64,000 nucleotides of DNA from Elusimicrobia bacterium GWA2_61_42 (GCA_001799615.1 MGTU01000009.1:576-64575), one strand, 5' to 3'; positions 8,201-45,467 are shown, numbered from the stretch's first letter. Program-made: numbers and translations. The notes: a model not told the origin generated them from the letters alone.

Positions 8201-11200
8201 CCTGGACCGCGGGCATTCCGGCGCTGAGGTGGGCGGCCACCTGGCGCAGGGTGCGGATGGAGCCGAGCTGCTCGGGCGTAATGCGGGGCGCGGTGGGGAG
8301 TTTCTCCTGGAGCTCGGAGAGAATGGCCACGCGCTTGATGGAATCGATGCCGAGGTCGGACTCCATGTCCATATCCTGGTTGAGCGATTCGGCCGGGTAA
8401 CCGGTCTGGGACGAAACGATATCCAGCAGCACTTTCGCGACGTCGGGCCCGGCCGCGGCCGGGGCGGGCAGGGCGGGGGCCGGTGCCGGCTGGTACGCCG
8501 GGACGGCAGCGCGGGGGGCGGGGGCGGGCTGGTACGCGGGCCACGGCTGGGCCGGCGCGCCGCCGAAGAACTGCTGCTGCTGGTCCAGCAGGGTCTGGAA
8601 GGAGCGCTGGGCGGCTTCCTGTCCCTCGAGGAAACGGGTATGCAGGATAGCGGTCTGCTCCTGCATCTTCTGCAGGGCGGCCATGCTTTCCTGCGTAATG
8701 CGCAGCGCGTCGGAGGCGTAGGCCTGCAGGGCAGGCTGCATGGCCGGCGCTCCGGTGAGTGCCTGCGCGGCCGCCGGGGCGGCGACTACCCTGCGGAGCG
8801 CGGGCTTTTGACCGGCGGGGCGGGGGGAGCGGTAATTGGCGCCGGTAAGTTTAACGGCAAGCTTGGAAACCTTGTTCTCCAGCACGTCCTTCACGCCGGC
8901 TTCCCCGTTCTCCCAGGCGGCGAGGTCCAGTTTATAACCCAGCGCAGCCAGGCGGGCCAGCGCGCGCGCGGCGTCGGCTATGCCGGAGCGTTTGCCGGCG
9001 GAGGCGTCCAGGGCGAAAGCGGTATGCGGCTTGCCGGCCAGGATGGCCGAGGCCAGGCCGGTCAGGCGCGAGCCGGGGCCCACCTCAAGGAATACGCGCG
9101 TTCCTGCGGCGTACATCTTCTCTATCATCGCAGTGAACTCCACAGGCGAGGCCAGCTGCGACGCCAGGATCTCGCGCGCCTTGCCGGGGTTCTCCGGGTA
9201 GGCTTCGGCGGTCTTGTTGGCGTAAACGGCGGCAACCGGCTTGTCGAATTTGACTTTCTCCAGCGCGGCGGCGAACTCTTTCTGCGCGCCGGCCACCAGC
9301 GGGCTGTGGAAAGCGGCCGAGACCTGCAGCTGCGTGCTCTTGAGGCCGCGGCTGGCGAAGGCTGCGGCGGCCCGCTTTATTTCTTCGGTGCGCCCTGACA
9401 GTACGAACTGCGCCGGGGCGTTCTTGTTGGCGATAATGAGGTCGAGCTTTTCTTCCTTAACGACTTTTTCCACGTCGGCGAGGCCGGCCTGCACGGCCAG
9501 CATTCCCCCGCGGTCGCCGGAGCCGGCGGCCATCAGGGAGCCGCGCAGTTTGGACAGGGAGAACAGTGAGGCAGCGTCAAAGGCGCCGGCCGCGCAGAGC
9601 GCCGCCAGTTCGCCGTAGCTGTGCCCGGCGAAAGCGTCGGGCTTGAGGCCGAAGCCGGCCAGCACGCGCCAGGCGCCCAGGGCGGCCGCGCCCAGCGCAG
9701 GCTGCGCCACCGAGGTGTCGCGCAGGGCGTCGGCCTGGGCCTGCCTGCCCTCCGGGGTGAAGGCGGACCTGGGATAGATGAAGTCGGAGAGCGGCTTATC
9801 GCCGCCGAAGGCCTTGTCGGCCGCGGCCAGCGTATCCAGCGCGGCGGGGAAACGGCAGACTATATCGCGCTGCATGCCTGGGTACTGCGCGCCCTGGCCG
9901 GGGAACAGCACGGCCAGCTTTTCGGGCGCGCCGGAGGCGTAGAACACGCCGTCGGGAGTGGTCCAGGAGGCGGCCTGCTGCGAAGAGAGATTGGAGAGAG
10001 CGGAAGCTATGACTTTATTATAGTCGGAGTCCCGCTCCAGCACGAAGGTAAGGCGCGCGGCGCCGTCGGCCTTGTAGGCAGCGCGGGAGCGCATGGCTTT
10101 AACGCGCAGGTCGTTCCACTGCAGCCCTGCCCAGCCGGCCAGCTCGGTCTTCAGCGTTCCTGCGTCGGGCCCGGAGAGGGCCGCGATCTGCACTTCGCCG
10201 TCCCAGTCGGGCTGGGCCTTAACGGGGGAGTATTCCTCCAGCACGGCGTGGAAATTGGCGCCGCCGAACCCCAGGGCGCTCACGGCCGCCCGGCGGGGGT
10301 GGCTCTTCGGCAGCCAGGGGCGCAGTTCGGTGTTGAGGTAGAAGGGGGTAGTTCCGGCCGCCAGCTGTTTTACCGGCGCGGTTACTTTAATGGTGGGCGG
10401 GAGGGTTTTGTTGTAGAGCGAGAGGGCGGCCTTGATGAGGCCGGCCGAACCGGCGGCGGCCTTGGTGTGGCCGATCATGGATTTCACCGAGCCGAGGGCG
10501 CACCAGGTGCCTTCCTTCCTGCTGTCGCGATAAACTTCGGTGAGGGCGTCCACTTCTACGCCGTCGCCGACGGTGGTGCCGGTGCCGTGCGCTTCCGCCA
10601 TCTCCACCGTGTCGGGGGAAACGCCGGTGACGGAGTAGGCGTTCCTGAGCGCGCGGGCCTGACCTTCGGCGCTGGGGGCGTAGATGGCCTTGCCTTTGCC
10701 GTCGGAGGAGGAGCCCACGCCCTTGAGCACGGCGTAGATCCTGTCGCCGTCCTTAACGGCGTCGTCGAGGCGCTTCATCACCATCATGCCCAGGCCTTCG
10801 CCCAGGGCCGTGCCGTCGGCGGAAGCGTCGAAAGGCTTGGCGTTGCCGTCGGCGGACAGCGCCGGGGTCTTGCTGAAGCACATGTACATGAAAATATCGT
10901 TGAAACAGTCCACGCCGCCGGTGACCACCATGGTGGAGCGCCTGGTGGCCAGCTCCATGGAGGCCATGTGCACCGCGCCCAGCGAGGAGCCGCAGGCGGC
11001 GTCCACCACGCAGTTGGTGCCGCCCAGGTTGAAGCGGTTGGCCACGCGGCCGGAGACCACGTTGCCGAGCAGGCCGGGGAAGGAACTTTCCTGCCACGGG
11101 ACGTAGTCCTCCTGCATGCGTGAGATGATGGCTTCGGCGTCCGCGCCGGTTATGCCGAACTCGGAGAGGGCCTTGCGCCACTTGGGGTGGCCCAGGCGGG

Positions 11201-11624
11201 CGCCGAGGGGGATCACCAGCTCCAGGGCGCCGGTGACGCCGAGGATAACGCTGACGCGGCCGCGGTCGAAATCCCGGCCGGGGCCGTAGCCCGCGTCCTG
11301 CAGGGCCATCTTGGCCGTCAGCAGGCCCAGCAGCTGGGCGCTGTCGGTGGCTTCCAGCGCGTTGGGCGCCAGGCCGAACTCCGACGGGTCGAAGTCCACG
11401 GGCAGGATGAAACCGCCCTTGCGGGCGTAGGTGCGGTCCGGGCTTTTGGGATTCTTGTCGTAATAATCTTCGGGGAGCCAGTGGGAGGCCGGCACGTCGG
11501 TGATGGCGTCCACGCCGTTCTTGATGTTGGCCCAGAACCGGCGGGCGTTCTCCGCTTTGGGGAACAGGCAGCCTATGCCGACTATCGCCACCGGTGACTG
11601 GACTGAGTTTTCTTTTACGCTCAT
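5253..11624 (-). CDS. pfaA: PUFA/polyketide synthase multidomain subunit, PfaA/Pfa2-like: KS - malonyl-CoA:ACP AT - 3 tandem ACP - KR - PKS-type DH
   Basis: 2123-aa ORF. Motifs found: KS VVDAACGSSL and HGTGT; AT GHSYGE; three near-identical ACPs each with DLGIDSIKRV; KR ITGGARGVTAEAA; DH LRSHVINGKAVVPTAV (HxxxGxxxxP). Confidence 0.93.
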   Translation of the reverse strand: MSVKENSVQSPVAIVGIGCLFPKAENARRFWANIKNGVDAITDVPASHWLPEDYYDKNPKSPDRTYARKGGFILPVDFDPSEFGLAPNALEATDSAQLLGLLTAKMALQDAGYGPGRDFDRGRVSVILGVTGALELVIPLGARLGHPKWRKALSEFGITGADAEAIISRMQEDYVPWQESSFPGLLGNVVSGRVANRFNLGGTNCVVDAACGSSLGAVHMASMELATRRSTMVVTGGVDCFNDIFMYMCFSKTPALSADGNAKPFDASADGTALGEGLGMMVMKRLDDAVKDGDRIYAVLKGVGSSSDGKGKAIYAPSAEGQARALRNAYSVTGVSPDTVEMAEAHGTGTTVGDGVEVDALTEVYRDSRKEGTWCALGSVKSMIGHTKAAAGSAGLIKAALSLYNKTLPPTIKVTAPVKQLAAGTTPFYLNTELRPWLPKSHPRRAAVSALGFGGANFHAVLEEYSPVKAQPDWDGEVQIAALSGPDAGTLKTELAGWAGLQWNDLRVKAMRSRAAYKADGAARLTFVLERDSDYNKVIASALSNLSSQQAASWTTPDGVFYASGAPEKLAVLFPGQGAQYPGMQRDIVCRFPAALDTLAAADKAFGGDKPLSDFIYPRSAFTPEGRQAQADALRDTSVAQPALGAAALGAWRVLAGFGLKPDAFAGHSYGELAALCAAGAFDAASLFSLSKLRGSLMAAGSGDRGGMLAVQAGLADVEKVVKEEKLDLIIANKNAPAQFVLSGRTEEIKRAAAAFASRGLKSTQLQVSAAFHSPLVAGAQKEFAAALEKVKFDKPVAAVYANKTAEAYPENPGKAREILASQLASPVEFTAMIEKMYAAGTRVFLEVGPGSRLTGLASAILAGKPHTAFALDASAGKRSGIADAARALARLAALGYKLDLAAWENGEAGVKDVLENKVSKLAVKLTGANYRSPRPAGQKPALRRVVAAPAAAQALTGAPAMQPALQAYASDALRITQESMAALQKMQEQTAILHTRFLEGQEAAQRSFQTLLDQQQQFFGGAPAQPWPAYQPAPAPRAAVPAYQPAPAPALPAPAAAGPDVAKVLLDIVSSQTGYPAESLNQDMDMESDLGIDSIKRVAILSELQEKLPTAPRITPEQLGSIRTLRQVAAHLSAGMPAVQAAPAQPAPVAAGSEVSKVLLEIVSAQTGYPAESLNQDMDMESDLGIDSIKRVAILSELQEKLPSAPRITPEQLGSIRTLRQVAAHLSAGMPAAPAQQAPAAAGSEISSVLLEIVSAQTGYPAESLNQDMDMESDLGIDSIKRVAILSELQERLPSAPRITPEQLGAIRTLRQVAAHLTAGAAPAPVPAPAAAAAKTFESEIVREVLKTAELDLSAPRQAVPLDKKLPIWVTEDGSALSAAIVKNLVERGHAAKTVSLDETAVPGTGLAGLVIIAPAVKLGKKDFWNGTSEAFLKKAFSLTRAAGPALKAAGKASGAVLMTVSRLDGAFGISGLKSEQDPVFGGLAGLAKTAGHEWPEVSCRALDAAADWTHTVSVAQAVADELFCKGPAELGLSDTGSKVVLLSRSEQVKGEDFPLAKGDVVLITGGARGVTAEAAAALAAACGAALAVLGRSPLPAAEEGWLAACGSENDIKKALLSRNPGMAPKAAGEQCRSILAAREIRAQLNRFEAAGSRASYYSADIRDAKAVGEALAKVKKELGPVRGLVHGAGVLADKLLLDKTDEQFSSVFDTKVVGLRNILTALDLTKLKALALYSSSTARFGRAGQCDYAMANEVLNKTARLLARRLPDCRVASFNWGPWDGGMVNDGLKALFAKEGVGVIGLEEGGRFLVNELSLQGGPAEVVVVARPKAPAATPPVSGRALARAFDFSVSVADSPFLRSHVINGKAVVPTAVITEWLAHAALHGNPGLLFHGFNGLKIYKGILLEGGTYRVSALAGKTSKLNGLFAVPVELRGPNGELHAGAEIVLAAALPAAAAPAPDFPLKPYPRTADKAYGEILFHGEDMRFIRSVAGVSEKGIVLDAAASLPPASWMRSPLRDRWLADPAALDAAFQGMILWTFENSGACSLPNSAAAYRQYSQFPGGGVRISARVTRSAEHACTADIDFTDDKGALVARLEGYDSTVDKALNAAFQKKELSATAA
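7665..8455 (-). repeat. Three tandem ACP-encoding repeats (period about 273-282 nt) inside pfaA, near-identical at nucleotide level over the cores
   Basis: The stretch ...gatgccgaggtcggactccatgtccatgtcctggttgagcgactcggccgggtagccggtctgggccgagactat... recurs at about 7790, 8065 and 8345. In protein it reads GYPAESLNQDMDMESDLGIDSIKRVAILSELQEKLP, three times. Confidence 0.9.
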
Positions 11625-11672
11625 AGTATCCTCGTTTCCCGGACCCTGTCCGGCGGCCGTTCGGCCTTGTTT

Positions 11673-13250
11673 CTAGTTGCGAAAGAACGCAGACAGCTGC
11701 TCCCTGGTGCGGGGGGCCTGGCGGGCCAGCCGGCTGTCGGCGGCCACGCCCTGGCAGCGCAGGGCGTGCAGGCGCGTAAGCGCGGCCGCCCCGGCGAGTA
11801 AATTATAGGCGACGGTAACGGCGTCGCGGGCTTCCGGTTTTTCAAGGAAGGAGCCCCTGGCCCATTCGTTGAAGGCGCCCATGGCGGGGCCGCACCAGAT
11901 CTGGTAGTCGAGCTTGCGGCTCTCGTCCCCGGCCAGCGGCCAGCGGGAGGACTGGCTGAGGTACCAGCGGAACACCAGGGCCAGCTTATGCTTCGGCTCC
12001 CGTTCGGCGCGCTCGGCCTGCGCGGGGTCTTTGCGCAGGAAGTAGTCCCGCGTGCCCTGCCAGACCTCGCCGAAGGAGGCGCGGAAATAATCCCGCTCGA
12101 TGACGGCCCTGGTCTCGGCGGGGATCTCCTCGAAGCTCCCGCAGGTGCGGTAAAGATCGTAAAGCTTGTTGGCGCGCATGGCGAACATGGTGCCGCGCTT
12201 GAGGATCTGCACCCGCACGCCCATCTCGAACATGTCGGCCGCGGCGGCCATGGCCACGTCGGCCTGCTCCGCCCCGGCGAGGAGTTTCCGCACCAGGTCC
12301 GTGGTGCCCGATTCCACGCAGGCCTGGTTGACCGAGCCGGTCACCACGTAGGCCGCGCCCATCATGAAGGCGGCGGCGGCCGCTTCGGGGGTGGCTATGC
12401 CGCCGCCGGCGCCCACGCGCGGGGCAACGGCGTAATTAAATTTCTCCTGCAGCCGGTCGCGCAGGGCGAGGATGGTGGGCAGCAGGTTGACCAGCGGCCG
12501 GTTGTCCGTATGCCCGCCGGAGTCGGCTTCGGCCGTCACGTCCTCCGCCACGGGGATCCTGGAGGCCAGCTCGGCCTGTTCGGGCGTGAGCTCGCCGCGG
12601 GAGACCAGCTCCTTCAGGAATTTTTCCTCCGGGGGCGAGAAGAAGCGCGTCGCCACTTCCGTGCGCGAGATCTTGCCTATCACGCGGTTAGGGGTCTCTA
12701 TCCCGCCGTCGGCGTTGCGGCGTATGCCCGCGGTGCGGTAGCGGATGAGCGGCAGGGTGAGGCCGATGAAAGCCGAAGCCTCCACCAGGCGCACGCCGCG
12801 TTTTAAGTACAGGTCCACCAGGGCCGCTTCCAGCGCGGGGTCTGAGGGGCTGTGTATCAGGTTGAAACCGAAATTGGGCACCGCGGCTGACTGCAGGCGG
12901 TCTATGGCCTTTTCAACTTCAGCGATGGGCTGGCCGGCGGCGCCGTAGAAGCCCAGCATGCCGGCCCGGCCGAACGCCTCGGCCAGTTCAGTGGAGCTTA
13001 TGCCGTTGGCCATGGAGCCGCCGACGTAGGCGTAACCCAGCCCGTGGGCCCGCAGGAAAGCGGGATCGCCCAGGTTTTCCGGGGCGCAGGCGGGCATTAC
13101 GGGGGTGCCGGGCTTGAGCCCGGGGGTTAAGGCCAGGCTTTCGGAGCCGGCAGCGGAGAAAGGCGCCGTCAGGTCCTGTATGGCGGCCAGGGTCTCCGGC
13201 GAATAAGGCAGAAAAGGCTGCGTTTTGGTCCCTGTCGTTGAAGCGGTCAA
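11673..13250 (-). CDS. pfaD: PfaD-family enoyl reductase (FMN-dependent, 2-nitropropane dioxygenase-like) of the PUFA/polyketide synthase
   Basis: 525 aa. It contains GGSMANGISSTELAEAFGRAGMLGFYGAAG and ADSGGHTD, typical of PfaD/Pfa1. It sits directly upstream of pfaA on the same strand. Confidence 0.9.
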   Translation of the reverse strand: MTASTTGTKTQPFLPYSPETLAAIQDLTAPFSAAGSESLALTPGLKPGTPVMPACAPENLGDPAFLRAHGLGYAYVGGSMANGISSTELAEAFGRAGMLGFYGAAGQPIAEVEKAIDRLQSAAVPNFGFNLIHSPSDPALEAALVDLYLKRGVRLVEASAFIGLTLPLIRYRTAGIRRNADGGIETPNRVIGKISRTEVATRFFSPPEEKFLKELVSRGELTPEQAELASRIPVAEDVTAEADSGGHTDNRPLVNLLPTILALRDRLQEKFNYAVAPRVGAGGGIATPEAAAAAFMMGAAYVVTGSVNQACVESGTTDLVRKLLAGAEQADVAMAAAADMFEMGVRVQILKRGTMFAMRANKLYDLYRTCGSFEEIPAETRAVIERDYFRASFGEVWQGTRDYFLRKDPAQAERAEREPKHKLALVFRWYLSQSSRWPLAGDESRKLDYQIWCGPAMGAFNEWARGSFLEKPEARDAVTVAYNLLAGAAALTRLHALRCQGVAADSRLARQAPRTREQLSAFFRN

Positions 13251-14986: not shown

Positions 14987-16351
14987 GTGTTTTATTGTAA
15001 AATTTCAGACATGACGCGGCCCAACGCTTTTACCAAGGTTGCCGGCCCGGCGGCCATTGTCGGCGCCGTCGGCTGGACGCTTTGGCTATGGCCGGCGCAT
15101 TTCCTCTGGGTCTACCCCGCCAGCGGGGCGCTGTTCCTCTGGTTCTCCTGGTCCGGCGAGCGCGAAATAAAATACATCTTCCTTTTCCTGGTCACCGTGG
15201 CCGGGTTCCTGCTGCCTAATCTCTCGCCGGAGGGGGATTCGCTGTACCTTATGGCCGGGGCCATCGCCGAAACCCTGGGCCTGTGGCTGCTTTTCTACGC
15301 CTTGTCCCATTTTGAAACCTCGCGCGTAGCCGCCCGCGAGCGCCTGTACGCGCAGGAGGCGGCGGCGCTGGAAAAAGTGAAGAACCTGGAAGACGAGCTG
15401 GCCCGCTACCGCCTGCACCTCGACAGCACCCTGGCCCGCATAAGGGACAAGGGCGCCCTGGCCGCCGCCCTCCACGACATGGGCTCCGCCTCGGCCCCCG
15501 ACGAGGTGCGCGACCGGCTTGAAACCCTGCTGCGCGAATATTTCCCGGGCGCCTCGGTGGAACTGCGCACCGGCGCCCCGCGCGATTTCGCCGATAACTG
15601 GGTGGCGGAGCGCAAGATCCCGCTGCTGGTGCGCAACTCGGACGCCGACAGCCGCTTTAACCGGAGTCTTTTCGGGCCGCAGGAGCGCTCTTTCATGGCG
15701 CTGCCGCTTTACCTGTTCGGCCGGCTGGTCGGGTTCGTGCGCGCGTCGGCGGCGGCTCCGGACCGCTTCAAGTCGGAGGACCTCCGCGGGGCTGAGCTCG
15801 CCTGCACGCTGGCCGGGGTCAGCATGGAGAACATCTACCTTTTCGACAAGGTCAACGAACTGGCCATAAAGGACGGGCTTACCGGCCTTTACACGCACCG
15901 GGCTTTCCAGGACCGGGTGCAGGAAGAGGTGCTGCGCTCGGCGCGCACCAAGGTCCCGTTCTCCATAATCATGGCCGACATCGACCATTTTAAATCCTAC
16001 AACGACAATTTCGGCCACCAGGCCGGCGACACGGTCCTGAAGGCCGTGGCGGAAGTTTTCGCCGGAGGCGTGCGCGACATCGACTTCGTGTCGCGCTACG
16101 GCGGCGAGGAGTTCGCCCTGGTAATAACCGGCTCCGGCAAAGAGCAGGCGTCCGCCGTGGCCGAGGGGCTGCGCCGCTCGCTCGAGGCCAGGGCTTTTAA
16201 TTTCGGCGGCCGGCCGTCCCGCGTAACCGCCAGCTTCGGCGTGGCCGAATTTCCCTCCGAGGGCGCCGCCGCCAGCCAGCTGGTGCGGGCCTCGGACGAG
16301 CGCCTGTATAAAGCCAAAGAAGGCGGCCGCAACAGGGTGGTGTTCGAATGA
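14987..16351 (+). CDS. Diguanylate cyclase, membrane N-terminus + GAF-like + GGDEF (GGEEF) with an RxxD I-site
   Basis: Contains LTGLYTHRAF, DIDHFKSYND and RDIDFVSRYGGEEF. The ORF-track start is a GTG; the ATG at 15011 (MTRPNAF) is an equally plausible start. Confidence 0.85.
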   Translation: MFYCKISDMTRPNAFTKVAGPAAIVGAVGWTLWLWPAHFLWVYPASGALFLWFSWSGEREIKYIFLFLVTVAGFLLPNLSPEGDSLYLMAGAIAETLGLWLLFYALSHFETSRVAARERLYAQEAAALEKVKNLEDELARYRLHLDSTLARIRDKGALAAALHDMGSASAPDEVRDRLETLLREYFPGASVELRTGAPRDFADNWVAERKIPLLVRNSDADSRFNRSLFGPQERSFMALPLYLFGRLVGFVRASAAAPDRFKSEDLRGAELACTLAGVSMENIYLFDKVNELAIKDGLTGLYTHRAFQDRVQEEVLRSARTKVPFSIIMADIDHFKSYNDNFGHQAGDTVLKAVAEVFAGGVRDIDFVSRYGGEEFALVITGSGKEQASAVAEGLRRSLEARAFNFGGRPSRVTASFGVAEFPSEGAAASQLVRASDERLYKAKEGGRNRVVFE

Positions 16352-17595
16352 ACAGGCCTGAATTGTGGATAGCCGCCGCGGCCGCCGCCCCGGTGCTTTC
16401 CTATTTCCTGGGGCGCCTCAACCGCTGGGCCGGCCTGGCCGCCGGGCTGCTGCTTTTTATTTTCTGCTCTTTCATGCTGGCGGGAGAAATTTCCGCCGGG
16501 GCGCCGTTCGCGGCGCTGGCTTTATGGGTGGCGGCCGCGCTGGCCCACTCGGTGCTGCTCAACGGGCGCCATTCGGACGCGGCGGACAGGTCCGGCCTGG
16601 AGGCCGCCGTAAAAAAGGCGGCCGCGCTGGAAGCCGAGCTTGCCGCCATCAAGAGCGAAGCCAGCCTTAACGCGGCCGGCGAGAAAAAATCCCTGGCCAT
16701 TTATTCCGCCGTAAAATTGCTTTCCGAGACCGTGGAGCCGCAGACCGCCGCCAAACAGCTGGGCAAGTACCTGGCCGACTATTTCGGGACCGAGGAAGCC
16801 GCGCTCTACATGGCCGGCGGTTCAGGCGGCGTGGCGGAGATGGAGCTGTTCGCGCAGGCCGCCAAAGGCTCCGCCCTGCCCGCACTGGCGGAACTGACGG
16901 CCCTGGCCGGAGGCTTCCCTCAGGAGACTGCAGCGGCCGCCGGCCTGGTGCTGGCGCCCGTGGCCGCCGGCGGGGCGCCCCTGGGCCTGATCGTCGTGCG
17001 CGCGGACCCGGCCGCCGCCGATAGCGCGTCCAGGTTCGCGTCCGATATCTCGTTCGCGCTCAAGCGCGTGATCCTGTTCCGCCAGGTGGAATGGCTGTCG
17101 CTTACCGACGGCCTTACCGGCCTGTGGCGCCGCGGCGCCCTGGACGAAAAGATCCGCGAGGAGATCCGGCGCGCCTCGGCGTTCAAGACCACGCTGGGCT
17201 TCATGATAGCCGACATAGACCACTTTAAGCGCCTCAACGACACCTACGGCCACCAGTTCGGCGACGCCGTGCTCAAGCGGGTGGCGCAGCTGCTGAAGTC
17301 AGGGGTTTACGAAACGGACTTCGTCGGGCGTTACGGCGGCGAAGAATTCGGCATAGTGCTGCCCCGCGCCGATTCGGCCGGCCTGCTGCGCAAGGCCGAG
17401 GCCGTGAGGGCCCGCATAGAGGCCGAGGTGTTTTCACAGGGCCTTGAAAAGGTGCGGCTTACCGTTTCCATAGGCATAGCGCACTTTCCCAAGGACGGGC
17501 GCGGCCCCGAGGAACTGGTGGCCGCGGCCGACAAGGCGCTGTACGCCGCCAAGGAAAGCGGGCGAAACCGCGTGGCGGAAGCCGGCAAGAGCTAG
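16348..17595 (+). CDS. Diguanylate cyclase (GGDEF domain, GGEEF), membrane N-terminus; no RxxD I-site
   Basis: Contains LTGLWRRGAL, DIDHFKRLND and YETDFVGRYGGEEF. Its start overlaps the upstream stop (ATGA). Confidence 0.85.
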   Translation: MNRPELWIAAAAAAPVLSYFLGRLNRWAGLAAGLLLFIFCSFMLAGEISAGAPFAALALWVAAALAHSVLLNGRHSDAADRSGLEAAVKKAAALEAELAAIKSEASLNAAGEKKSLAIYSAVKLLSETVEPQTAAKQLGKYLADYFGTEEAALYMAGGSGGVAEMELFAQAAKGSALPALAELTALAGGFPQETAAAAGLVLAPVAAGGAPLGLIVVRADPAAADSASRFASDISFALKRVILFRQVEWLSLTDGLTGLWRRGALDEKIREEIRRASAFKTTLGFMIADIDHFKRLNDTYGHQFGDAVLKRVAQLLKSGVYETDFVGRYGGEEFGIVLPRADSAGLLRKAEAVRARIEAEVFSQGLEKVRLTVSIGIAHFPKDGRGPEELVAAADKALYAAKESGRNRVAEAGKS

Positions 17596-31739: not shown

Positions 31740-31768
31740 CTGACCTTTTGGCCTTGATATTGTATAAT
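31740..31768 (+). promoter_or_regulatory. Candidate promoter of the giant-protein operon
   Basis: CTGACC, then 17 nt, then TATAAT (31763..31768, preceded by TG). A GAGGTG SD lies at about 31798, ahead of the ATG at 31809. Confidence 0.35.
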
Positions 31769-31808: not shown

Positions 31809-34800
31809 ATGCGCAATTTTCTGGCAATCTCCGTCTCTTTCCTTTTTTTATTGTTGCCTTTCCCCCAGGACGTTTCAGCCCAGACAGACAGCCCGGATCC
31901 TTTCTCCAAATTTAAAAACCGCGTAAAAGCCGACCGGCAAATGACCGGGGGCGCCGACCAGTGGAAAGCGCTGAGCGCGAAACTGGCGGCGGACCCGCTC
32001 TTCGCGGCGCTGGGCCTGGACAAGCTCGTCTACGACAAAGGCAACCAGCTGACCTACGACTTCGACCTGTCCCTCGGCGGCGAAGAGCTGGACCTGAAAG
32101 GCACGCTGACCTTCGACCCGCAGGCGGCCGACGGCGCCCCGGCGGCCAGCCTGACCTCCAAGGCCGAATCCCGCACCTCCGACGACCTGGTGGACATCGG
32201 CGCGCTGCACGCCACCTCGGCCAGCCTGGACGTAGTGGTCTACAAGGAAGCCGGCGCCTACAAGGTCTACGCCCGCGTCATCCCCTACTTCACCAACTAT
32301 AACAAGCCCCCGCTGCCGGGCCTCATGCTCACCAAAACCAAAGCCGGCCTGGATTTCCTGGTCATAGGCGGCAACCTGGCGTTGCGGGACATCCTGCCTT
32401 ACGCCGGGCAGCTGCCGCTCTACAAGCAGTTCGCCTTCGAAAGCCTGGCCAAGAACGGCACGGAGCTCAAGATCAAGGGCTTTGTGAACGGCCGCGAGAT
32501 CTCCGTGACCGCCGATACCGCCCAGAATACCCTGCGCCTCACCGGCCAGGGCCTGGTGCTGGCTGATTTCTACCCCGAAGCCTCCGCCTTCACCTATCTC
32601 TCCAACTTCGCCTTCGAAAGCTACTACCAGTCCCCCGCGGCCGGCATGGCCGTCGGCGGCACGGTGAACGGCAGGAAGGTCACCGTGGCCCGCGGTGGAG
32701 ACAAGACTTCTTTCGTGGTGACAGCCGCCGGCCTTAAACTGGCCGACTTCGTGCCCGCGGCGGCGCAGGTGCCCGTGCTCGCCAACTTCTCCTTCACCGG
32801 CCTTATCTGGGCGCCCGGTTCCCTTACCGTCAACGGCACCATCGGCGGCAAGAGCGCCGCGGTGGTCTCCGACAGCGCGGGGCAGACCCTCACCGTAACC
32901 GGCGACGCCCTTAAGCTGCAGGACTTCCTCCCCGAAGCCGCCGCTCTGCCCGTACTCGCCGCTTTCGACTTCCTGCGCCTGGAGCAGGCCCCGGCCGGTT
33001 TCTCCGTGCTGGGCCACATCAACGGCGGAGAAGTTACCGTTACAAAGGGCGCGGCGCCCAAAACCTACACCGTAACCTCTACCGGCCTTAAGCTGGCCGA
33101 CTTCATCCCTACAGCGTCCAAAGTGCGGTTCCTCGACGCTTTCGAATTCGTCAGCGCCGGCCGCTCGCCGACGGCTACCCAGGTGACCGGGCGCGTCAGC
33201 GGCAAGAACGTTACCGTCGAAAGCGGCCCGGCGGGGGCTTTCACCCTCACCGGCGAAGGGCTTACGCTCAGCGACCTCGTCCCCGAAGCGTCCAGCCTGG
33301 CCTCGCTCAATAATTTCGTGTTCGAAAAATATGATTACGCCGCCGGCAACACCACGGTGTCCGGCAAGGTGCGGGGCAAAGCCCTGCTGGTGAAGAAAAG
33401 CGCCGGCGACAAGGCGCTGCTCATCAGCGGCGAAGACCTGAAGCTCGCCGACTTCGTAGCCGAAGCTTCGCAGCTTACCTACCTCGATACTTTCGCCCTG
33501 GACACGGTCAAGTGTTCTCCCGACGAATTCATCGTCAACGGCAAGGTGAACGCCAAAGCCGTGACCATAGACGACCACACTACCAGCAATATCTTCACGG
33601 TTACCGGCGAAGCGCTGAAGCTGGCCGATTTTATACCGGACGCGAAGAACCTGACCTACCTCAACACCTTCGCCTTCGACAGCCTTACCCATACGGCCGA
33701 CGGCATCGCCGTGGCGGGCCGCGTGAACGGCAAAGGCGTAACGGTCAGCCATACCCTGGCGGACAAGACCTTCACGGTGAAGGGCGACAATCTCAAGCTG
33801 GCGGATTTCATCCCGGCGGCGGTCAAGATCTCTTACCTGAACGGCTTCACCTTCCTGGAGCTGGATTACTCCGAGACCGAAATTAAAGTAGCCGGCACGG
33901 TGAACGCCAAGAACATCGCGGTGGTGCAGGACCTGGCCACCAAGATGTTCACGCTGACCGGTTCCGCGCTGCAGCTGACGGACTTTGTGCCGGCGGCCAG
34001 GAATCTCCCCTACCTGCAGAAGTTCGACCTGAACCGCGTGCAGCAGCGCCCCAACGGCGCGCTGGTGAACGGCGACATAGACGGCAAAGCGCTGAGCGTG
34101 GACGCCGACCTGGACGCCAATACCTTCAAGATCACGGGCGCCGACCTGCTCCTTAAGGACTTCGTCCCGCAGGTTTCCGGGTGGTCTTACCTGAATAACT
34201 TCAAGTTCGACAGCCTGCTCTCGACGCTTACCGACGTCACCGTGACCGGCAAGGTGGGCGACAAGGCGGTCTACGTCAAGAAGACGCTGAATTCCCCGAA
34301 TTTCATGGTGACCGGCGACGACCTGACGCTGGTGGACTTCATCCCCGAGGCGGCCGAGGTGCCCTGCGTGAGCGCCTTCGCGCTGGACAGCGTGCAGCGC
34401 TCGGACACCGACGCTTCCATCGCCGGCAAAGTCGACGGCAAGCCCGTCGGTATAACCACTACTTTCGCCGACAACTCGATCAAGATGACCGGGCTGGGCC
34501 TGAGCCTGCCCGCGTGCGTGCCGTTCTCTCTGAACCTGCCCGCCCTGAAGTGGTTCACCTTCGGCAGCCTGTTCCATTGGCCGGACAGGATCGAAGTGAA
34601 CGGGACCATCGACGGCAAGGCGGTGAAACTTGTGTGGGTCTTCTCCCCCAAGGTCATAACCGCCACCGGCGACAGCCTTAAGCTGGCCGACTTCATCCCG
34701 GAGACCGCCAGGATCCCGCTCTTAAACTCGTTCGCTTTCCTGAGCATGGAGTATACGGATACTACGTTGACCGTGAGCGGCACGGTGAGAAGCAAGAACG

Positions 34801-37800
34801 TGGCCGCCGTGCGTGACAACGCTGCCAAGAGCATTAAAGTGACCGGCGACGACCTGAAGCTGGCGGACTTCGTGCCCGAGGCGGCTGACGTCCCCTTCCT
34901 GAAAGCTTTCGCTTTCGACAGCCTGGCCTATACCCCGGACTCCATCGTGGTGGAGGGCAAGCTGAGCGCCAAGAAGGTTTCCGTGACGCGGGCTTTCGGC
35001 CCGGCGACCGCTTTCACCGCCACCGGCGAGGGACTTACGCTCAAGGACATCGTCCCCGAGGCGGGCGGCATTAAGGCTTTCGACGCGCTGGCTCTTAATC
35101 TGGTCAGCGTGAGCCCGGAGGCCGTGCAGGTAGCCGGCACGCTGAACGGCAAAGCGGTGAAGTTCGTGCGCACCCGGAACGACAAACCCGTGACCACCGT
35201 TACGGCGGACGGCATGGTGCTGGCGGATATTTACGCCCCGCTGGCCGGCCTGCCCGCCGTGAACGCGGTGGCCGTGGACAAGATCAGCCTGGACGGCACC
35301 AGCGTGGAAGCCGAGGCTAAACTGAACGGCGTGAAGGTGGACGTTATCGCCCACGCCAACCAGAATAACGACGGCGGCTACGTCTCCGTCTTCTTCGACA
35401 CGCTCTCGGCCGCCACCTTCATCCCGGCGGCGCAGGGACATTTGGTCAACGACCTCTTCCTGGAGAAGGCGCTGTTCCTCGTGCAGCCCGCGGGCTCGCC
35501 CGCGCGTGCGGTTACGGCCGCGGACCTGCCCGGCGACCTGCCCAAACTGGTAGCGTGGCCGGCTAACACGTCGATGAACCTGTCGGAAGGCGTGAATTTC
35601 GCCGCCACCATCGCCACGGCCAAGTCCGGCAAGCTCGCCGACGCTTTCAAGACCGTCGGCCTGCCGCCGGTCAGCGTGTTCGTCAAAGGCACGGTTTCCC
35701 AGAATACCTTTAAAGGCATGACCCCGGGCGGAGCGCTGGCCGAAGCCGACAAGCAGGTTATGCTGGCCGGCCTGGACCTGAGCATAGATCTCCCGCTGCC
35801 TACCCTCCCCGCCATCGCGGGCATGGTCACCGTCAAAGGACCGGTCACACTTAACATCGGCGGCGACGCCAGGAACAAGAGCAGCCTGTGGGCGCGCGTG
35901 CCCGCGGCCATAGCCGCTTCCAAGCCTAAGGGCGACCTGGACGTGTCCGTGCAGTTCCAAGTGGACATAGTCGGCGCGGGCATCGGCGAGAAGTTGGACG
36001 CCCTGGTGAGCCTGGACAAAGGCGCGAGCGGCGGTTTAACCCTGCTGGCGCTTTACGAGGGCGCCTGGAAGCAGCCTTTCGGCATCCAGGGCCTGACCCT
36101 GGCCGACGGCGGCTTCGAGTTCGCGCTGGACGGCAAGGACGCGCAGGCCAAGAGCAGCCTGGGCTTCTTCGCCACGGCGCTGATAGGCGGCAAGAACGTG
36201 GCCGTCACCGCCGAACTGAAGCGCGCGGACGGCAAGATCTCGCTGGATTACTTCGAGCTGGACGGCAAGTTCCGCCTGGCCGATTTCCCCGGCGGCAAGA
36301 ACATTCCCTCCGGCGAGAAGTTCGAGCTGGACCAGCTGAAACTTTCGGTCAACGGCATAGAGGCCAAGACCGTGATAGGCGGGAACAAGGTGAACGCCTA
36401 CATGTTCAACGCCGGCGCGGCCGCGACGCCCAACTGGGTCTTCGCCATCAACCAGAAGAACTTCAAGATCACCGAGCTGCTGCCCGCTGCCAAGGCTATC
36501 AAGCCGCTGGCCGCCATGACCATCCCCAACGCGGCGCTGATCCTTTCCGAGAAAGGGCTGAAGAACGCCGACCGCAACAGCCTGGGCGTGATCGCCAGGG
36601 ACATGTTCGACGGCATCCTCGGTAAATCCAACGCGCCGGTCACCCTGCCCGACGGCATAGGCCTGCTGGCGGAGTTCGACCCCAACGCGATGGGCATTGT
36701 GGGTAAAGGGCTTAACGCCATAGGCGTGCATGACGACGCCATTATAATGGGCGCCGTCACCGGAGTATTCCAGGGCCAGGCCGGCGTAATGCTGTCGCTG
36801 AGCATGGAGAGCGCGGGCGCGGCCAAGGGCCTGCCCGGCAAGATCATGACCTTCAAGCCCGGAGTGCCGCCGGCTTACTTCATCCAGTGGGCGGGCGCGG
36901 ACCTGTACGCGGGCCTGAGCACCGCGATGCAGGTGAAAGCCGGCAAGGAGACCATCGACTTCGCCACCAAACTGGAGCTGCAGTTCGGCGAGGCCGGCGC
37001 CGGGGTAAAGATCCTGGGCGAGAAGACCGGGCCCTGGAAGCAGCCTTTCGGCATCAAGGGCCTGACCCTCAATAACCTGAAGATGGACGTGGCCATAACG
37101 CCCGTGGGCGAGGTGCAGTTCGGCCTGGCCGGCGCCGGGGTAAAGATCCTGGGCGAGAAGACCGGGCCCTGGAAGCAGCCTTTCGGCATCAAGGGCCTGA
37201 CCCTCAATAACCTGAAGATGGACGTGGCCATAACGCCCGTGGGCGAGGTGCAGTTCGGCCTGGCCGGCGATCAGCTGTACGGCAACTGCCACGACCTGAA
37301 GTCCAAGGACTGCGTGGACGTGGACCTGGCGATGAGCGTGAAAGTCCCGCTGGAGGCCGGCCTGCCCGACGGCGTGGCCTTCGCCGGCAAGGTGAATCCG
37401 CTGAGCATCCCGGCCCTGATGGAGATAACGGAAACGCTGATGGGCGTGCCCGCGGGCAGCATCGCCAAGCTGCCGGTGCCTTACTTCGAGATCGACAACG
37501 CCCAGCTGGCCTTCGCCACGCCAGGCGCCAGCGACCCGCAGCTGGGGCTGGTAAGCGAGGGCTTCGCCTTCGCCGGCAACTTCTTCTTCATGAACAAGAA
37601 TCTGGGGAAGGTAACGGGCGCCGGCGGGCCCGGCGGCCTCAGGATCAAGGGCGCTATCGGCGACATCGACCTGGAAGTTCTGAAGTTCACGGATAATACC
37701 ATCGACATTTCCGTCAACCAGGTCCCCAAATACGTCATCAACGCCAACGTGACCCTGCTGGGCGCGCCCCAGAAGGTGGCCATCGACATCGAGCCGCCGC

Positions 37801-39824
37801 ATTTCTCCTTCGACATAACGGAAAAGCTGGGCGCCTTCGGCAACGCGCTGCTGACCATCACCATGGACGGCTTCGACCTGAAGAAAGGCACCTTCGACAA
37901 GAACGCCGGGATCAGCGTGGTGGGCGAGTTCCAGTCCACGCTGGTGCCGTGGATGAAGGCCGAAGTGAAGCGCGGCGTGGAAGAACTGCGGGATTCCGCC
38001 AAGGCCAAGTTCGAGGCCGACGGTAAAGCTTTGAACGAGGCGATGGACAAGGTCAACCAGCTCACCGCCAAGATCCAGAAACTCAAAGAAGAGGACCAGA
38101 AAGCCAAAGACCGGGCCAACGACGCCCTGGATTCCGCCAAGCGCCGCGTGGATTCTTTGTCCGACCAGCACGACCACGAGAACCACCAGGCCCACCATTG
38201 CGGTTCGCGCTGGACGCATTGGGCCTGTTCGCCCGGCTGGCGCATAGCCGCGGCTTCGACCTGGGTCATTTACGAAGTGGCCGAGAAATCCCTGGACGCC
38301 GCCAAGAAAGTGGTGGCGGCCGCCACCAACCTGGACCCCCGCGTAGCGGCCCTGATCGCCGAGCGCGACATCGAGCGCGCCGGGCTTTCCGTGGCACAGG
38401 CCGTGGTGAAGGTGGCCGAGGACGTGGAAGACTTCGTGATGAAAGAACTCGAGACCGTCCTGGAGAAAGCGATCTCCAGCATGCCGCTGGAAATAGACAA
38501 GACCTATATCGTGGGCGACCTGAAGGACATGGTCACCCACAACGACCCGCTGGTGCTGGATATGCAGTTCAAGCTGGCCGGCGCCCCGATGCACGAGTTC
38601 TTCGCGGTAAAGATCCCGATCAACGAGGAGAACGCCCAGTTCGACGCGGGCTCCTTCGCGCTGCTGCCGGCGCTGGCCATGGACAAGCTGACCGAGGACG
38701 CGCTGAGCAAGCTCTCGCCGTCGGCGGCCAAGTGGGTGCACTCCCACATCGCCACGCAGATCGCCGACTCCGAGGAGAAGGTGCGCGAGGCCGTGGAAGC
38801 CCAGGAGGAGAAGTACAAAGCCGTGCTGGCTTCCCTGGAGAACGGCACCGCGAAGTACAAGAAGGCCTTCGCGGAGCAGGCCGACGACCACCTGAAGCTG
38901 GTGGAGGGCATGGACGTCAGCGACCTGATGCCCAACAGCCTGCAGTACCAGAACACCTACCTCGCCATCGGGCACAGCAGTCTCTGCCTGGCCGTCTCCA
39001 AGGACGGCCTGAGCGTGGTGCAGCTGCCCTGCAAGGACGCGGACGTGCAGCAGTGGAGCACGGTGGCGCTGAAGGACGACGCCGCGGGCTACGTGGAGCT
39101 CAAGAACAAGGGGCTCTGCCTGAAGGCCCGCCAGGGCGACGAACGGGACGGCTTCGAGCCGCTGATCCTGGCCCAGTGCGACTCGGACGACCTGCATGAG
39201 CAGTGGAAGATAATCTCGGCGGACGGGTTCTACGAGGAGATCGTCAACCGCGCTTCGCAGAAATGCCTGCACTTCGACAAAGAGGACGCCAACCCGGAGT
39301 CGGCTTTCGCCAAGTGGACCAGCTGCCTGGGCACCGACTCCCAGACCTTCCGGGACATCTCCGACGCGGAGAAGCCCACCTGGCACAAGGTGGAGTCCAT
39401 GGTGAGGGCGGCCAACGGCCTGTGCCTGGACGTGGTGGAACAGGCGGAGAACGCGCTGCAGATCACGCCGGACAAAAAAGAGATAAAACTCTACGCGCAT
39501 AAATGCGGCGAAGGCAGCGAGAAGTTCAACTACATCGAAGAGGTGGACGGCGACATCCGGCTGGTGCATACCGAGACCGGCGCCTGCGTCTACCCGCAGG
39601 AAAAGAGCACCACCCTGGCGCTCAGGGCCTGCGACCGCGGCGAAGACATGTTCTGGCGGATCAACGCCAAGTCGGCCAACGCCGACCAGTTCTTCATCGA
39701 GCCCAGGAACGCCTGCATGACGCTGCCCGCGCCGCCCAAGGGATCCACGCAGGACCTGGAAGCGGGCATCGCGGACTGCAACATCGTACCCAACGACAGC
39801 ACCTTACTGGAACTTACAAAATGA
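31809..39824 (+). CDS. Giant secreted repeat protein (2,671 aa): signal peptide, about 17 novel ~59-aa repeats, central beta-rich region, coiled coil, C-terminal ricin-type beta-trefoil lectin domains
   Basis: The signal peptide is MRNFLAISVSFLFLLLPFPQDVSA-Q. The repeat consensus is L-K-L-A-D-F-I-P-E-A..L..F.F.S......V.G.VNGK.V.V. The coiled coil is KALNEAMDKVNQLTAKIQKLKEEDQKAKDRANDALDSAKRRV. The C-terminus (about 38950..39821) has CL...QQW / CL...EQW / ...KW and a second CLDV...FW module, as in (QxW)3 lectins. Confidence 0.9.
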   Translation: MRNFLAISVSFLFLLLPFPQDVSAQTDSPDPFSKFKNRVKADRQMTGGADQWKALSAKLAADPLFAALGLDKLVYDKGNQLTYDFDLSLGGEELDLKGTLTFDPQAADGAPAASLTSKAESRTSDDLVDIGALHATSASLDVVVYKEAGAYKVYARVIPYFTNYNKPPLPGLMLTKTKAGLDFLVIGGNLALRDILPYAGQLPLYKQFAFESLAKNGTELKIKGFVNGREISVTADTAQNTLRLTGQGLVLADFYPEASAFTYLSNFAFESYYQSPAAGMAVGGTVNGRKVTVARGGDKTSFVVTAAGLKLADFVPAAAQVPVLANFSFTGLIWAPGSLTVNGTIGGKSAAVVSDSAGQTLTVTGDALKLQDFLPEAAALPVLAAFDFLRLEQAPAGFSVLGHINGGEVTVTKGAAPKTYTVTSTGLKLADFIPTASKVRFLDAFEFVSAGRSPTATQVTGRVSGKNVTVESGPAGAFTLTGEGLTLSDLVPEASSLASLNNFVFEKYDYAAGNTTVSGKVRGKALLVKKSAGDKALLISGEDLKLADFVAEASQLTYLDTFALDTVKCSPDEFIVNGKVNAKAVTIDDHTTSNIFTVTGEALKLADFIPDAKNLTYLNTFAFDSLTHTADGIAVAGRVNGKGVTVSHTLADKTFTVKGDNLKLADFIPAAVKISYLNGFTFLELDYSETEIKVAGTVNAKNIAVVQDLATKMFTLTGSALQLTDFVPAARNLPYLQKFDLNRVQQRPNGALVNGDIDGKALSVDADLDANTFKITGADLLLKDFVPQVSGWSYLNNFKFDSLLSTLTDVTVTGKVGDKAVYVKKTLNSPNFMVTGDDLTLVDFIPEAAEVPCVSAFALDSVQRSDTDASIAGKVDGKPVGITTTFADNSIKMTGLGLSLPACVPFSLNLPALKWFTFGSLFHWPDRIEVNGTIDGKAVKLVWVFSPKVITATGDSLKLADFIPETARIPLLNSFAFLSMEYTDTTLTVSGTVRSKNVAAVRDNAAKSIKVTGDDLKLADFVPEAADVPFLKAFAFDSLAYTPDSIVVEGKLSAKKVSVTRAFGPATAFTATGEGLTLKDIVPEAGGIKAFDALALNLVSVSPEAVQVAGTLNGKAVKFVRTRNDKPVTTVTADGMVLADIYAPLAGLPAVNAVAVDKISLDGTSVEAEAKLNGVKVDVIAHANQNNDGGYVSVFFDTLSAATFIPAAQGHLVNDLFLEKALFLVQPAGSPARAVTAADLPGDLPKLVAWPANTSMNLSEGVNFAATIATAKSGKLADAFKTVGLPPVSVFVKGTVSQNTFKGMTPGGALAEADKQVMLAGLDLSIDLPLPTLPAIAGMVTVKGPVTLNIGGDARNKSSLWARVPAAIAASKPKGDLDVSVQFQVDIVGAGIGEKLDALVSLDKGASGGLTLLALYEGAWKQPFGIQGLTLADGGFEFALDGKDAQAKSSLGFFATALIGGKNVAVTAELKRADGKISLDYFELDGKFRLADFPGGKNIPSGEKFELDQLKLSVNGIEAKTVIGGNKVNAYMFNAGAAATPNWVFAINQKNFKITELLPAAKAIKPLAAMTIPNAALILSEKGLKNADRNSLGVIARDMFDGILGKSNAPVTLPDGIGLLAEFDPNAMGIVGKGLNAIGVHDDAIIMGAVTGVFQGQAGVMLSLSMESAGAAKGLPGKIMTFKPGVPPAYFIQWAGADLYAGLSTAMQVKAGKETIDFATKLELQFGEAGAGVKILGEKTGPWKQPFGIKGLTLNNLKMDVAITPVGEVQFGLAGAGVKILGEKTGPWKQPFGIKGLTLNNLKMDVAITPVGEVQFGLAGDQLYGNCHDLKSKDCVDVDLAMSVKVPLEAGLPDGVAFAGKVNPLSIPALMEITETLMGVPAGSIAKLPVPYFEIDNAQLAFATPGASDPQLGLVSEGFAFAGNFFFMNKNLGKVTGAGGPGGLRIKGAIGDIDLEVLKFTDNTIDISVNQVPKYVINANVTLLGAPQKVAIDIEPPHFSFDITEKLGAFGNALLTITMDGFDLKKGTFDKNAGISVVGEFQSTLVPWMKAEVKRGVEELRDSAKAKFEADGKALNEAMDKVNQLTAKIQKLKEEDQKAKDRANDALDSAKRRVDSLSDQHDHENHQAHHCGSRWTHWACSPGWRIAAASTWVIYEVAEKSLDAAKKVVAAATNLDPRVAALIAERDIERAGLSVAQAVVKVAEDVEDFVMKELETVLEKAISSMPLEIDKTYIVGDLKDMVTHNDPLVLDMQFKLAGAPMHEFFAVKIPINEENAQFDAGSFALLPALAMDKLTEDALSKLSPSAAKWVHSHIATQIADSEEKVREAVEAQEEKYKAVLASLENGTAKYKKAFAEQADDHLKLVEGMDVSDLMPNSLQYQNTYLAIGHSSLCLAVSKDGLSVVQLPCKDADVQQWSTVALKDDAAGYVELKNKGLCLKARQGDERDGFEPLILAQCDSDDLHEQWKIISADGFYEEIVNRASQKCLHFDKEDANPESAFAKWTSCLGTDSQTFRDISDAEKPTWHKVESMVRAANGLCLDVVEQAENALQITPDKKEIKLYAHKCGEGSEKFNYIEEVDGDIRLVHTETGACVYPQEKSTTLALRACDRGEDMFWRINAKSANADQFFIEPRNACMTLPAPPKGSTQDLEAGIADCNIVPNDSTLLELTK
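32376..35360 (+). repeat. Array of about 17 degenerate tandem coding repeats (~177 nt / ~59 aa each) in the giant gene
   Basis: Each unit starts with L[KTQLV]L[AKSTQ]D[FIL][VIY]P and ends ...T[VLA]TG. Seventeen units were counted by eye, from LALRDILPYAG to MVLADIYAPLA. Confidence 0.8.
36993..37262 (+). repeat. Perfect 2 x 135-bp in-frame tandem duplication (45 aa: AGAGVKILGEKTGPWKQPFGIKGLTLNNLKMDVAITPVGEVQFGL)
   Basis: The sequence gccggcgccggggtaaagatcctgggcgag...gaggtgcagttcggcctg occurs twice back to back, with no mismatch that I can see. Confidence 0.85.
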
Positions 39825-42554: not shown

Positions 42555-42578
42555 CCGCGCGCTTTTGCGGTTTATTAA

Positions 42579-42614
42579 GGCCCGGCAGGCTGAAACCTGC
42601 CGGGCCTTTTCTTT
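42579..42614 (+). terminator. Intrinsic terminator of the giant-protein/secretin/protease operon
   Basis: The stem ggcccggcagg-ctgaaa-cctgccgggcc is followed by TTTTCTTT. Confidence 0.8.
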
Positions 42615-45395: not shown

Positions 45396-45467
45396 GCGCC
45401 CGTGGTGAAATGGATATCACAGGAGCCTCCGAAGCTTCTAGTGCAGGTTCGATTCCTGCCGGGCGCA
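45396..45467 (+). tRNA. tRNA-Arg (anticodon CCG)
   Basis: Hand-folded cloverleaf: acceptor GCGCCCG/CGGGCGC, D-stem GTGA/TCAC, anticodon stem GGAGC/GCTTC with loop CT-CCG-AA, T-arm GCAGG-TTCGATT-CCTGC, discriminator A. No encoded CCA. Confidence 0.85.

Follow-up and report, generated by a model that had tools for sequence, protein, structure and literature searches.

The window analyzed here, a stretch of 64,000 nucleotides from Elusimicrobia bacterium GWA2_61_42 (GCA_001799615.1, MGTU01000009.1:576-64575), holds a giant gene whose product carries a Sec-type signal peptide, a tandem array of 17 units of approximately 59 residues, and C-terminal ricin-type lectin domains. The next gene encodes a lipoprotein in which tetratricopeptide repeats (TPR) are fused to a secretin domain, and a gene for an HtrA/DegP-type serine protease and a terminator-like hairpin complete the transcription unit (Table 1). 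The analysis shows that the 17 units represent one module, not classified before, which is under purifying selection, and that the giant lectin gene is genomically coupled to the secretin gene.

The array is delimited both by a regular expression and by an independent hidden Markov model (HMM). The anchor L-x-L-x-D-F-[VI]-P matches the giant protein 16 times with a spacing of 58–60 residues, and the HMM, for which units of two other organisms but no window sequence were used, scores 16 units at 43–77 bits each and a degenerate unit 17 at 10.2 bits, compared to a noise level of 7.0 bits (the best of 200 shuffles of the region). The units start at residues 190, 249, 309, 368, 427, 485, 544, 603, 662, 721, 780, 839, 898, 957, 1016, 1076, and 1136. 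The consensus of 537 distinct units of the family is dominated by L1 (98%), L3 (87%), D5 (89%), P8 (94%), L16 (78%), and F19 (85%) in the first part, and by V33 (76%), G35 (99%), K40 (84%), and G57 (83%) in the second. Within the window, the units share a mean amino acid identity of 33% (range 13–49%) and a nucleotide identity of 51%, and Tandem Repeats Finder detects no DNA-level repeat in this part of the gene.

These results agree with the initial annotation of this DNA, which had proposed about 17 tandem repeats of about 59 residues, strongly diverged at the nucleotide level: 16 are canonical and one is degenerate, and the signature that it described corresponds to the consensus of the whole family. 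The span assigned to the array, 32376–35360, starts exactly at the first residue of unit 1, but ends inside unit 17, the true end lying at approximately 35390. The array was also taken as the N-terminal end of the protein, which has to be corrected, since the signal peptide (residues 1–24) and a head of 165 residues come first.

The suggestion that the repeats are old and under selection is likewise substantiated. Units 7–17 are positional orthologs between species, with a same-position identity of approximately 0.41–0.86, compared to approximately 0.34 for non-cognate units, and units 1–6 are reshuffled between lineages. Compared with orthologous DNA, the ratio of non-synonymous to synonymous substitutions (dN/dS) is 0.23–0.37 for units 7–17, 0.18–0.33 for the central region, and 0.37–0.65 for units 1–6, this last value being partly inflated by non-orthologous alignment; all of them are below 1. 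The fastest-evolving part of the protein is the head, with a dN/dS of 0.30–0.44, which is shared with the homologs P0002, P0003, and P0010. There is no concerted evolution of the units. The atypical unit 13, in which D5 is replaced, ranks first among all units in cross-species identity in two (0.86 and 0.68) of the three comparisons with orthologs, and second in the third. One ortholog (P0005) holds two copies of the unit-13 type, at positions 4 and 13.

Table 1. Features of the giant gene and its transcription unit, in window coordinates.
Feature	Coordinates	Strand	Remarks
Sigma-70-like promoter candidate (CTGACC-17-TATAAT)	31740..31768	+	5' of giant gene; consensus match only
Giant gene	31809..39824	+	single open reading frame, 2,671 aa
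Sec-type signal peptide (MRNFLAISVSFLFLLLPFPQDVSA/Q), aa 1-24	31809..31880	+	translation; cleavage site inferred
N-terminal head, aa 25-189 (165 aa)	31881..32375	+	no Pfam match
17-unit tandem array, aa 190-1194	32376..35390	+	units of 58-60 aa; regular expression and HMM
Unit 13, atypical, aromatic-rich (LSLPACVP...HWPDR...VWVF)	34500..34676	+	orthologous copy in P0001
Unit 17, degenerate, last of array, start aa 1136	35214..35390	+	HMM 10.2 bits
Central beta-rich region, aa 1195-2040 (~850 aa)	35391..37928	+	conserved; no known family or fold match
Candidate embedded 18th unit-like element (FRLADFPGGKNIP...), aa 1488-1552	36270..36464	+	unit HMM, orthologs
Tandem duplication of 135 nt, 2.2 copies	36975..37269	+	98% identical; +45 aa; tandem repeat in DNA
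Coiled-coil/helical region, aa 2041-2385 (~345 aa)	37929..38963	+	carries HHCGSRWTHWACSPGW motif
Ricin-type beta-trefoil lectin region, C-terminal, aa 2386-2671	38964..39821	+	Pfam
Lipoprotein TPR-secretin gene, 643 aa	39821..41752	+	lipobox LLAPAFSG/C; start overlaps giant-gene stop (ATGA)
HtrA/DegP-type serine protease catalytic domain without PDZ, 266 aa	41754..42554	+	third gene
Intrinsic-terminator-like hairpin	42577..42608	+	13-bp stem, 10 GC pairs, T-rich tail; closes three-gene unit

Regarding known families, Pfam and NCBIfam scans of the whole protein report only the C-terminal ricin-type lectin above threshold, and the Ig-like, cadherin, RTX, and Flg_new families of Pfam have no matches on it. 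When the 33 single units are compared with Pfam at E<=10, only three unrelated one-off matches appear; Big_1 is matched by one of the 33, at an E value of 0.007. Nothing is retrieved from the PDB sequence library by the whole region, by a profile of 33 units, or by a maximally diverse profile of 61 units. MucBP, PKD-like, and similar weak matches of the unit HMM were rejected, as they cover only profile positions 23–57, the generic beta-strand part. Thus, the repeat type is indeed an unrecognized one, as the initial annotation had stated: the module of 59 residues is a new sequence family with no counterpart in Pfam, NCBIfam, or PDB.

The sole recurrent weak match in these searches is the Pfam family CsoS2_M, which raises the alternative that the array, like CsoS2, is a scaffold that is mostly disordered and punctuated by periodic [VI][TS]G motifs. 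The repeat period is similar, and a homolog with 36 units (P0061) exceeds the Pfam gathering score (37.5 bits versus 22), probably from the summing of periodic VTG-like motifs. The window protein itself, however, stays below the cut-offs (14.1–17.5 bits versus 22 for CsoS2_M, and 10.7–15.2 bits versus 1100 for the NCBIfam CsoS2 model), it bears a Sec signal peptide and lectins, no carboxysome gene is found among the window genes scanned, and the array is predicted to be ordered, with a confidence near 92 in the model described below. A scaffold of this kind, to which next to no probability is assigned, is effectively refuted by the predicted order and the genomic context. P0061 (L001:10001-21241) also has a "faint" precomputed match to PF27694 (YegR).

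The fold of the unit has been predicted with AlphaFold2 (AF2) for units 6–11, using a multiple sequence alignment of 25 in-register orthologous and non-overlapping paralogous blocks. The model reaches a mean predicted local distance difference test (pLDDT) of 91.9 and a predicted template modelling score (pTM) of 0.81, and all five models have a pLDDT of at least 89. The DSSP pattern is identical in the six units, each comprising three short helical turns (LKLADF, VPEAA, and LPYLNxF) followed by four strands of 5–8 residues, which form an antiparallel meander linked by turns of 2–6 residues. The degenerate unit 17 keeps this secondary structure in a second AF2 model. Along the strands, hydrophobic positions (F21 and L24; L31, V33, and V37; V42 and V44; F53 and V55) alternate with polar ones, and the helical segment contributes the hydrophobic positions L1, L3, F6, V7, A10, V13, L16, and F19. 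This strict alternation implies that one face of the sheet lies under the helices, while the other is polar, variable, and exposed. Each unit is therefore predicted, with high confidence, to be a two-layer structure in which the helical turns pack on the hydrophobic face of a four-stranded meander.

A Foldseek comparison of the modelled consecutive repeats with PDB and BFVD, of the type that the initial annotation had proposed, gave no global match to a known structure (template modelling score, TM, up to 0.3). The local matches are to propeller blades and to the single-layer sheet of OspA, and 3u1w is matched with an E value of 1.5e-4. The OspA sheet is alike in being a long run of antiparallel hairpins, and engineered OspA variants reach a TM of 0.23–0.29 by query length; however, it is solvent-exposed on both faces, whereas one hydrophobic face of the window unit is covered by helices, and the TM is too low for fold identity. 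A beta-solenoid or parallel beta-helix, the form guessed by the initial annotation, was rejected: the AF2 model shows antiparallel meanders with tight turns and helical turns instead, strands of 7–8 residues are joined by turns of 2–4 residues as in hairpins, and no beta-helix appears among the top 50 matches.

The propeller matches would be explained if the units were blades of one or more beta-propellers, each contributing a four-stranded, blade-like meander, and the top Foldseek matches, with probabilities of up to 0.97, are indeed prolyl oligopeptidase, LRP6, WD40, and Kelch structures. Nevertheless, these matches have a TM of 0.12–0.19 and a root-mean-square deviation (RMSD) above 19 Å, the six modelled units show no ring closure, approximately 19 residues of each unit are helical, the unit counts of the family follow no fixed blade number, and there is no Pfam propeller match, all of which makes a propeller highly improbable.

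A closer likeness is found in the BLIP-like superfamily (BLIP, PepSY, DUF2874/PepSY-like, and SmpA_OmlA/BamE), which the modelled unit resembles in size and in the order of its elements. The BLIP-like motif comprises approximately 54–76 residues arranged as a short helix-loop-helix and four antiparallel strands; in tandem, the copies share a single uninterrupted antiparallel sheet that has the helices on one side, and two units span approximately 40 Å in the crystal structure (PMC2954215). If the analogy holds, this span corresponds to approximately 2 nm per window unit. Sequence comparisons do not reveal such a relationship: PepSY, PepSY_like (DUF2874), BLIP, and SmpA_OmlA are matched neither by the full protein (E<=1) nor by the 33 single units (E<=10), and hhalign gives a probability of 0.2% for the 61-unit profile against BLIP. 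The DUF2874 structures 4k61, 4hbr, and 4ipb are weak, non-significant Foldseek matches (E values of 0.5–0.9, TM of about 0.23, RMSD of about 14 Å). The modelled unit is thus regarded as resembling a BLIP/PepSY-like motif, not as a member of the superfamily.

By this same analogy, the array might be a multivalent binding or inhibitor surface, whose exposed sheet faces would contact partners such as enzymes, the cell wall, the secretin, or its TPR region. The BLIP-like motif agrees in topology and size and binds proteins through its sheet face, the corresponding face of the units is polar and varies from unit to unit, units 7–17 are conserved by position, and unit 13 holds a distinct and conserved aromatic signature. 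On the other hand, no sequence or profile link to the BLIP or PepSY families is found, a six-fold variation in unit number is difficult to reconcile with fixed specific partners, and the N-terminal units are reshuffled between lineages, so that this function is considered quite unlikely as the main one.

Between the array and the lectins lie approximately 1,190 residues, comprising the central beta-rich and the coiled-coil/helical regions. The presentation of the lectins by the array, which the initial annotation thought probable, is only a possibility. The central region (residues 1195–2040) is predicted by AF2 to be beta-rich, with a pLDDT of 74, and Foldseek finds no fold match for it in PDB. 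The pattern of the units recurs within it, e.g., at residues ~1491–1552, and the unit HMM detects such a copy in several orthologs; in the window, the embedded element (residues 1488–1552) scores 4.4 bits, which is within the noise, and the model there shows helical turns and four strands. Weak matches of the central region include the beta-belt of ApoB100 and LptD, which, together with the length of this beta-rich protein and its amphipathic strands, would fit a reading of the array as a lipid-carrying, AsmA/TamB-like hydrophobic groove across the periplasm. This possibility is very improbable: the hydrophobic sheet face of each unit is covered by its own helical segment, there is no Pfam match to AsmA, TamB, or DUF490, and no TamB, VPS13, or ATG2 among the fold matches listed. 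In addition, a cleavable signal peptide is no membrane anchor, and lectins make little sense in the periplasm.

Two further observations concern these regions. The duplication of 135 nt is missing from a 98%-identical homolog of 2,626 residues (P0049) and falls under a pLDDT of 50 in the AF2 model, where it is disordered. Either it arose very recently or it is an assembly artefact. In the coiled-coil region, a near-invariant HHCGSRWTHWACSPGW motif (HHCG-x4-HWAC) is found at 38193–38240, whose H, C, G, and H-W-A-C residues are invariant in an alignment of six homologs with identities as low as 45%, which come from Elusimicrobia or are unnamed metagenome proteins. This motif may act as a disulfide loop or metal site at the tip of a coiled-coil hairpin.

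The giant protein ends in two ricin-type trefoils (Ricin_B_lectin, 50.6 bits for a cut-off of 29; RicinB_lectin_2, 47.1 bits for a cut-off of 25.6), which would bind sugars, and such C-terminal lectins are present in all confident full-length members of the family. A word-indexed search with the repeat region retrieves only two partial Elusimicrobia proteins. The profile search that the initial annotation had also proposed, run exhaustively with HMMER over 1.84 billion cluster representatives, finds 46 proteins, 13 of them at E<=1e-30 and including giants with 27 and 36–37 units. Four units searched by tblastn against phage and plasmid collections gave no match. Full-length homologs number 22, with identities of 47–98%; all the named ones come from metagenome-assembled genomes (MAGs) of Elusimicrobia and are labelled, at best, as "ricin-type beta-trefoil lectin domain protein".

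The number of units in the homologs is 6–7, 13–14, 17 (the commonest), 22, 27, or 36–37, with a period of strictly ~59 residues. Across this range of approximately 6 to 37 units, the remainder of the protein is collinear, a behaviour expected of a spacer or shaft. Proteins with 27–36 units exhibit a weak super-period of five units, which indicates block duplication. An iterated unit HMM, for which profile drift is a caveat, detects one to five diverged units in nearly all family members; hence, the module looks ancestral and amplified in Elusimicrobia. Alphaproteobacterial and other members hold only zero to two detectable units and retain the secretin. A homolog from Ferrovibrio sp. (L030:1313-13498) has 4,062 residues and nearly no recognizable 59-residue units; it holds a Tectonin domain after the ricin lectin, and its adjoining secretin gene is convergent.

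The conserved partnership with the downstream secretin gene had been missed by the initial annotation. The secretin domain is recognized in the Pfam search (104.1 bits versus a cut-off of 27.5); its best PDB matches are RcpA and GspD, PilQ is also matched, and the N-terminal TPR region resembles a PilW-type pilotin. Against the curated NCBIfam equivalogs of the type II secretion system (T2SS), the type III secretion system (T3SS), type IV pili (T4P), MSHA, and HofQ, the secretin scores 48–84 bits, for cut-offs of 238–598. Using the conserved core of the giant protein as the query, a scan of GTDB, with each species represented by one genome, yields 40 loci, distributed among Elusimicrobia (the closest locus being that of GWC2_61_19, with 95% identity), Halobacteriovorax marinus, Campylobacterales, a gammaproteobacterium, Desulfatiglandales, Ferrovibrio and other Rhodospirillales, Hydrogenophilales, Rickettsiales, and a Planctomycetota MAG. 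A secretin homolog adjoins the giant gene in almost every locus with enough flanking sequence. By all-against-all clustering, the giant protein is present in 41 loci from nine taxonomic groups, and an adjacent secretin in 34 of the 41, covering eight groups: Elusimicrobia, Halobacteriovorax, Campylobacterales, Gammaproteobacteria, Alphaproteobacteria, Desulfatiglandales, Hydrogenophilales, and Rickettsiales. The same clustering finds no third gene family conserved across lineages, other than shadow open reading frames inside the giant gene; an HtrA-like protease gene follows in some of the Elusimicrobia loci and in no other group. The pairing of giant gene and secretin gene suggests a dedicated two-gene module for export or anchoring.

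Altogether, the data are consistent with a model in which the units, arranged head-to-tail, would form a rigid, elongated, two-layer ribbon. With a rise of approximately 2 nm per unit, taken from the BLIP analogy, 17 units might extend up to ~30–35 nm and 36 units to ~70 nm if the ribbon is straight. This ribbon would act as the length-variable shaft of a Sec-exported, glycan-binding giant surface protein, which would cross the outer membrane, or be anchored in it, by means of its own liposecretin, the product of the adjoining gene. The HtrA-like protease that the operon encodes in Elusimicrobia would probably process the giant protein, or control its quality, in the periplasm; by analogy, this protease recalls the periplasmic one that releases LapA-type adhesins. 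The long stalk guessed by the initial annotation is therefore plausible, given the copy number of 6–37 and the confidently predicted, rigid six-unit model, although not in the form of a beta-solenoid. The shaft with its own liposecretin is the preferred reading, and it is given about an even chance of being correct.

Several points weigh against it. Because orthologous and paralogous blocks are combined in the alignment behind the model, the confidence in the packing between units may be inflated. Known secretins operate with inner-membrane machinery, and such machinery is not encoded in the window, which leaves the driving force for so large a substrate unexplained. All family members come from uncultured organisms. 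Finally, the positional conservation of units 7–17 and the strong conservation of the atypical unit 13 hint at unit-specific roles beyond passive spacing.

The question of the driving force brings in another alternative, in which the array is primarily a secretion ratchet: the units would fold one after another once outside the cell and so draw the polypeptide through the secretin, the role as a shaft being secondary. A folding ratchet has been proposed for autotransporter passengers and for the beta-helices of TpsA proteins. Accordant with such a mechanism, no genes for the ATPase, platform, or (pseudo)pilins of T2SS or T4P are found in the window or in the conserved module, the giant gene and the secretin gene form a strict two-gene pair, and the units are small, numerous, and, from the model, independently foldable. 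The members with zero to two detectable units nevertheless keep the secretin, so export cannot need a long array, and the inner-membrane partners may be encoded elsewhere in the genome; as the main function of the array, a ratchet is thus regarded as improbable.

Returning to the shaft with its own liposecretin, a bolder extension can be formulated, in which the giant lectin and the pilotin-fused liposecretin would constitute a minimal "secretin two-partner" system, found in at least eight lineages, where the Sec-delivered giant protein is threaded through, or anchored in, the secretin without the inner-membrane machine of T2SS or T4P and its modules fold sequentially outside as a shaft. This proposal is speculative and rather unlikely as it stands, but, if true, it would represent a new route of outer-membrane export or anchoring and a new use of the secretin channel. 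The literature search on orphan secretins with giant or ricin-type substrates, or on giant adhesins of Elusimicrobia, found nothing relevant, and a preprint on giant genes (10.1101/2023.11.21.568195) mentions neither lectins nor secretins.

Apart from this module, positions 1–13250 of the window (minus strand) hold a cluster resembling those for polyunsaturated fatty acid (PUFA) synthases and type I polyketide synthases, located in a stretch with a GC content of 67–69%, compared to ~60–64% elsewhere. It comprises genes for a KS-AT-ACPx3-KR-DH protein of 2,123 residues, a KS-KS-AT-FabA protein truncated by the window edge, and a PfaD-like enoyl reductase. Two adjacent GGDEF diguanylate cyclase genes are located upstream of the giant gene at 14987–17595 (plus strand), and a tRNA-Arg(CCG) at 45396–45467 (plus strand) is the only RNA gene detected in the window.

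Among known systems, the members of the BLIP-like superfamily described in PMC2954215 hold one or two copies of their motif in small periplasmic or secreted proteins, whereas the window family accumulates 17–37 units in giant ones. If the resemblance is genuine, no BLIP/PepSY-like motif of helices plus four strands would so far have been seen in a longer tandem array. The stalks of giant Gram-negative adhesins are alike in general plan, with many small folded domains in tandem, a surface protein of several thousand residues, ligand-binding domains, and a variable copy number (PMC5466336, PMC4083281, PMC7493085). The BIg repeats of SiiE and the region II repeats of LapA and MpIBP are Ig-like beta-sandwiches of ~90–110 residues, stiffened by Ca2+, in proteins exported by type I secretion through a C-terminal signal. 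The window protein differs from them in its alpha/beta unit of 59 residues, which has no Ca2+ motif, in its N-terminal Sec signal, and in being encoded next to a secretin rather than a type I secretion system.

In layout, with a giant gene next to a single channel gene, the pair also resembles TpsA/TpsB. In two-partner secretion, exemplified by filamentous haemagglutinin, a large, Sec-dependent, repetitive, and beta-rich exoprotein is encoded beside the gene for its own outer-membrane channel. Contrary to TpsB, the window channel belongs to the secretins, with a TPR lipoprotein domain fused to it, and is not an Omp85/POTRA protein, and its presumed cargo is no parallel beta-helix and has no Pfam match to the TPS domain. 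With the secretins of T2SS, T4P, and Tad (GspD, PilQ, and RcpA) and their TPR pilotins (PilF/PilW and TadD), the window protein shares the secretin domain and the pilotin-like TPR, and its lipobox is as in self-piloting liposecretins such as HxcQ. It departs from those systems in that TPR replace most of the N-domains and in that its conserved neighbour is a giant lectin protein.

The strict pairing with an orphan TPR-liposecretin suggests that one giant, Sec-dependent substrate may have a secretin to itself, with none of the usual machinery. In addition, these results provide a first handle on rare giant lectin proteins of uncultured Elusimicrobia, related to proteins of predatory, host-associated, and free-living Proteobacteria, and the unit profile would improve the annotation of proteins now labelled as "ricin-type lectin domain protein" or "hypothetical". 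Compared with what is known, the unit is probably a small fold of known type that is here repeated in tandem to a new extreme, in the familiar general role of an extension region for giant surface proteins, and the pair formed by the giant lectin gene and the orphan secretin gene is the more novel element.

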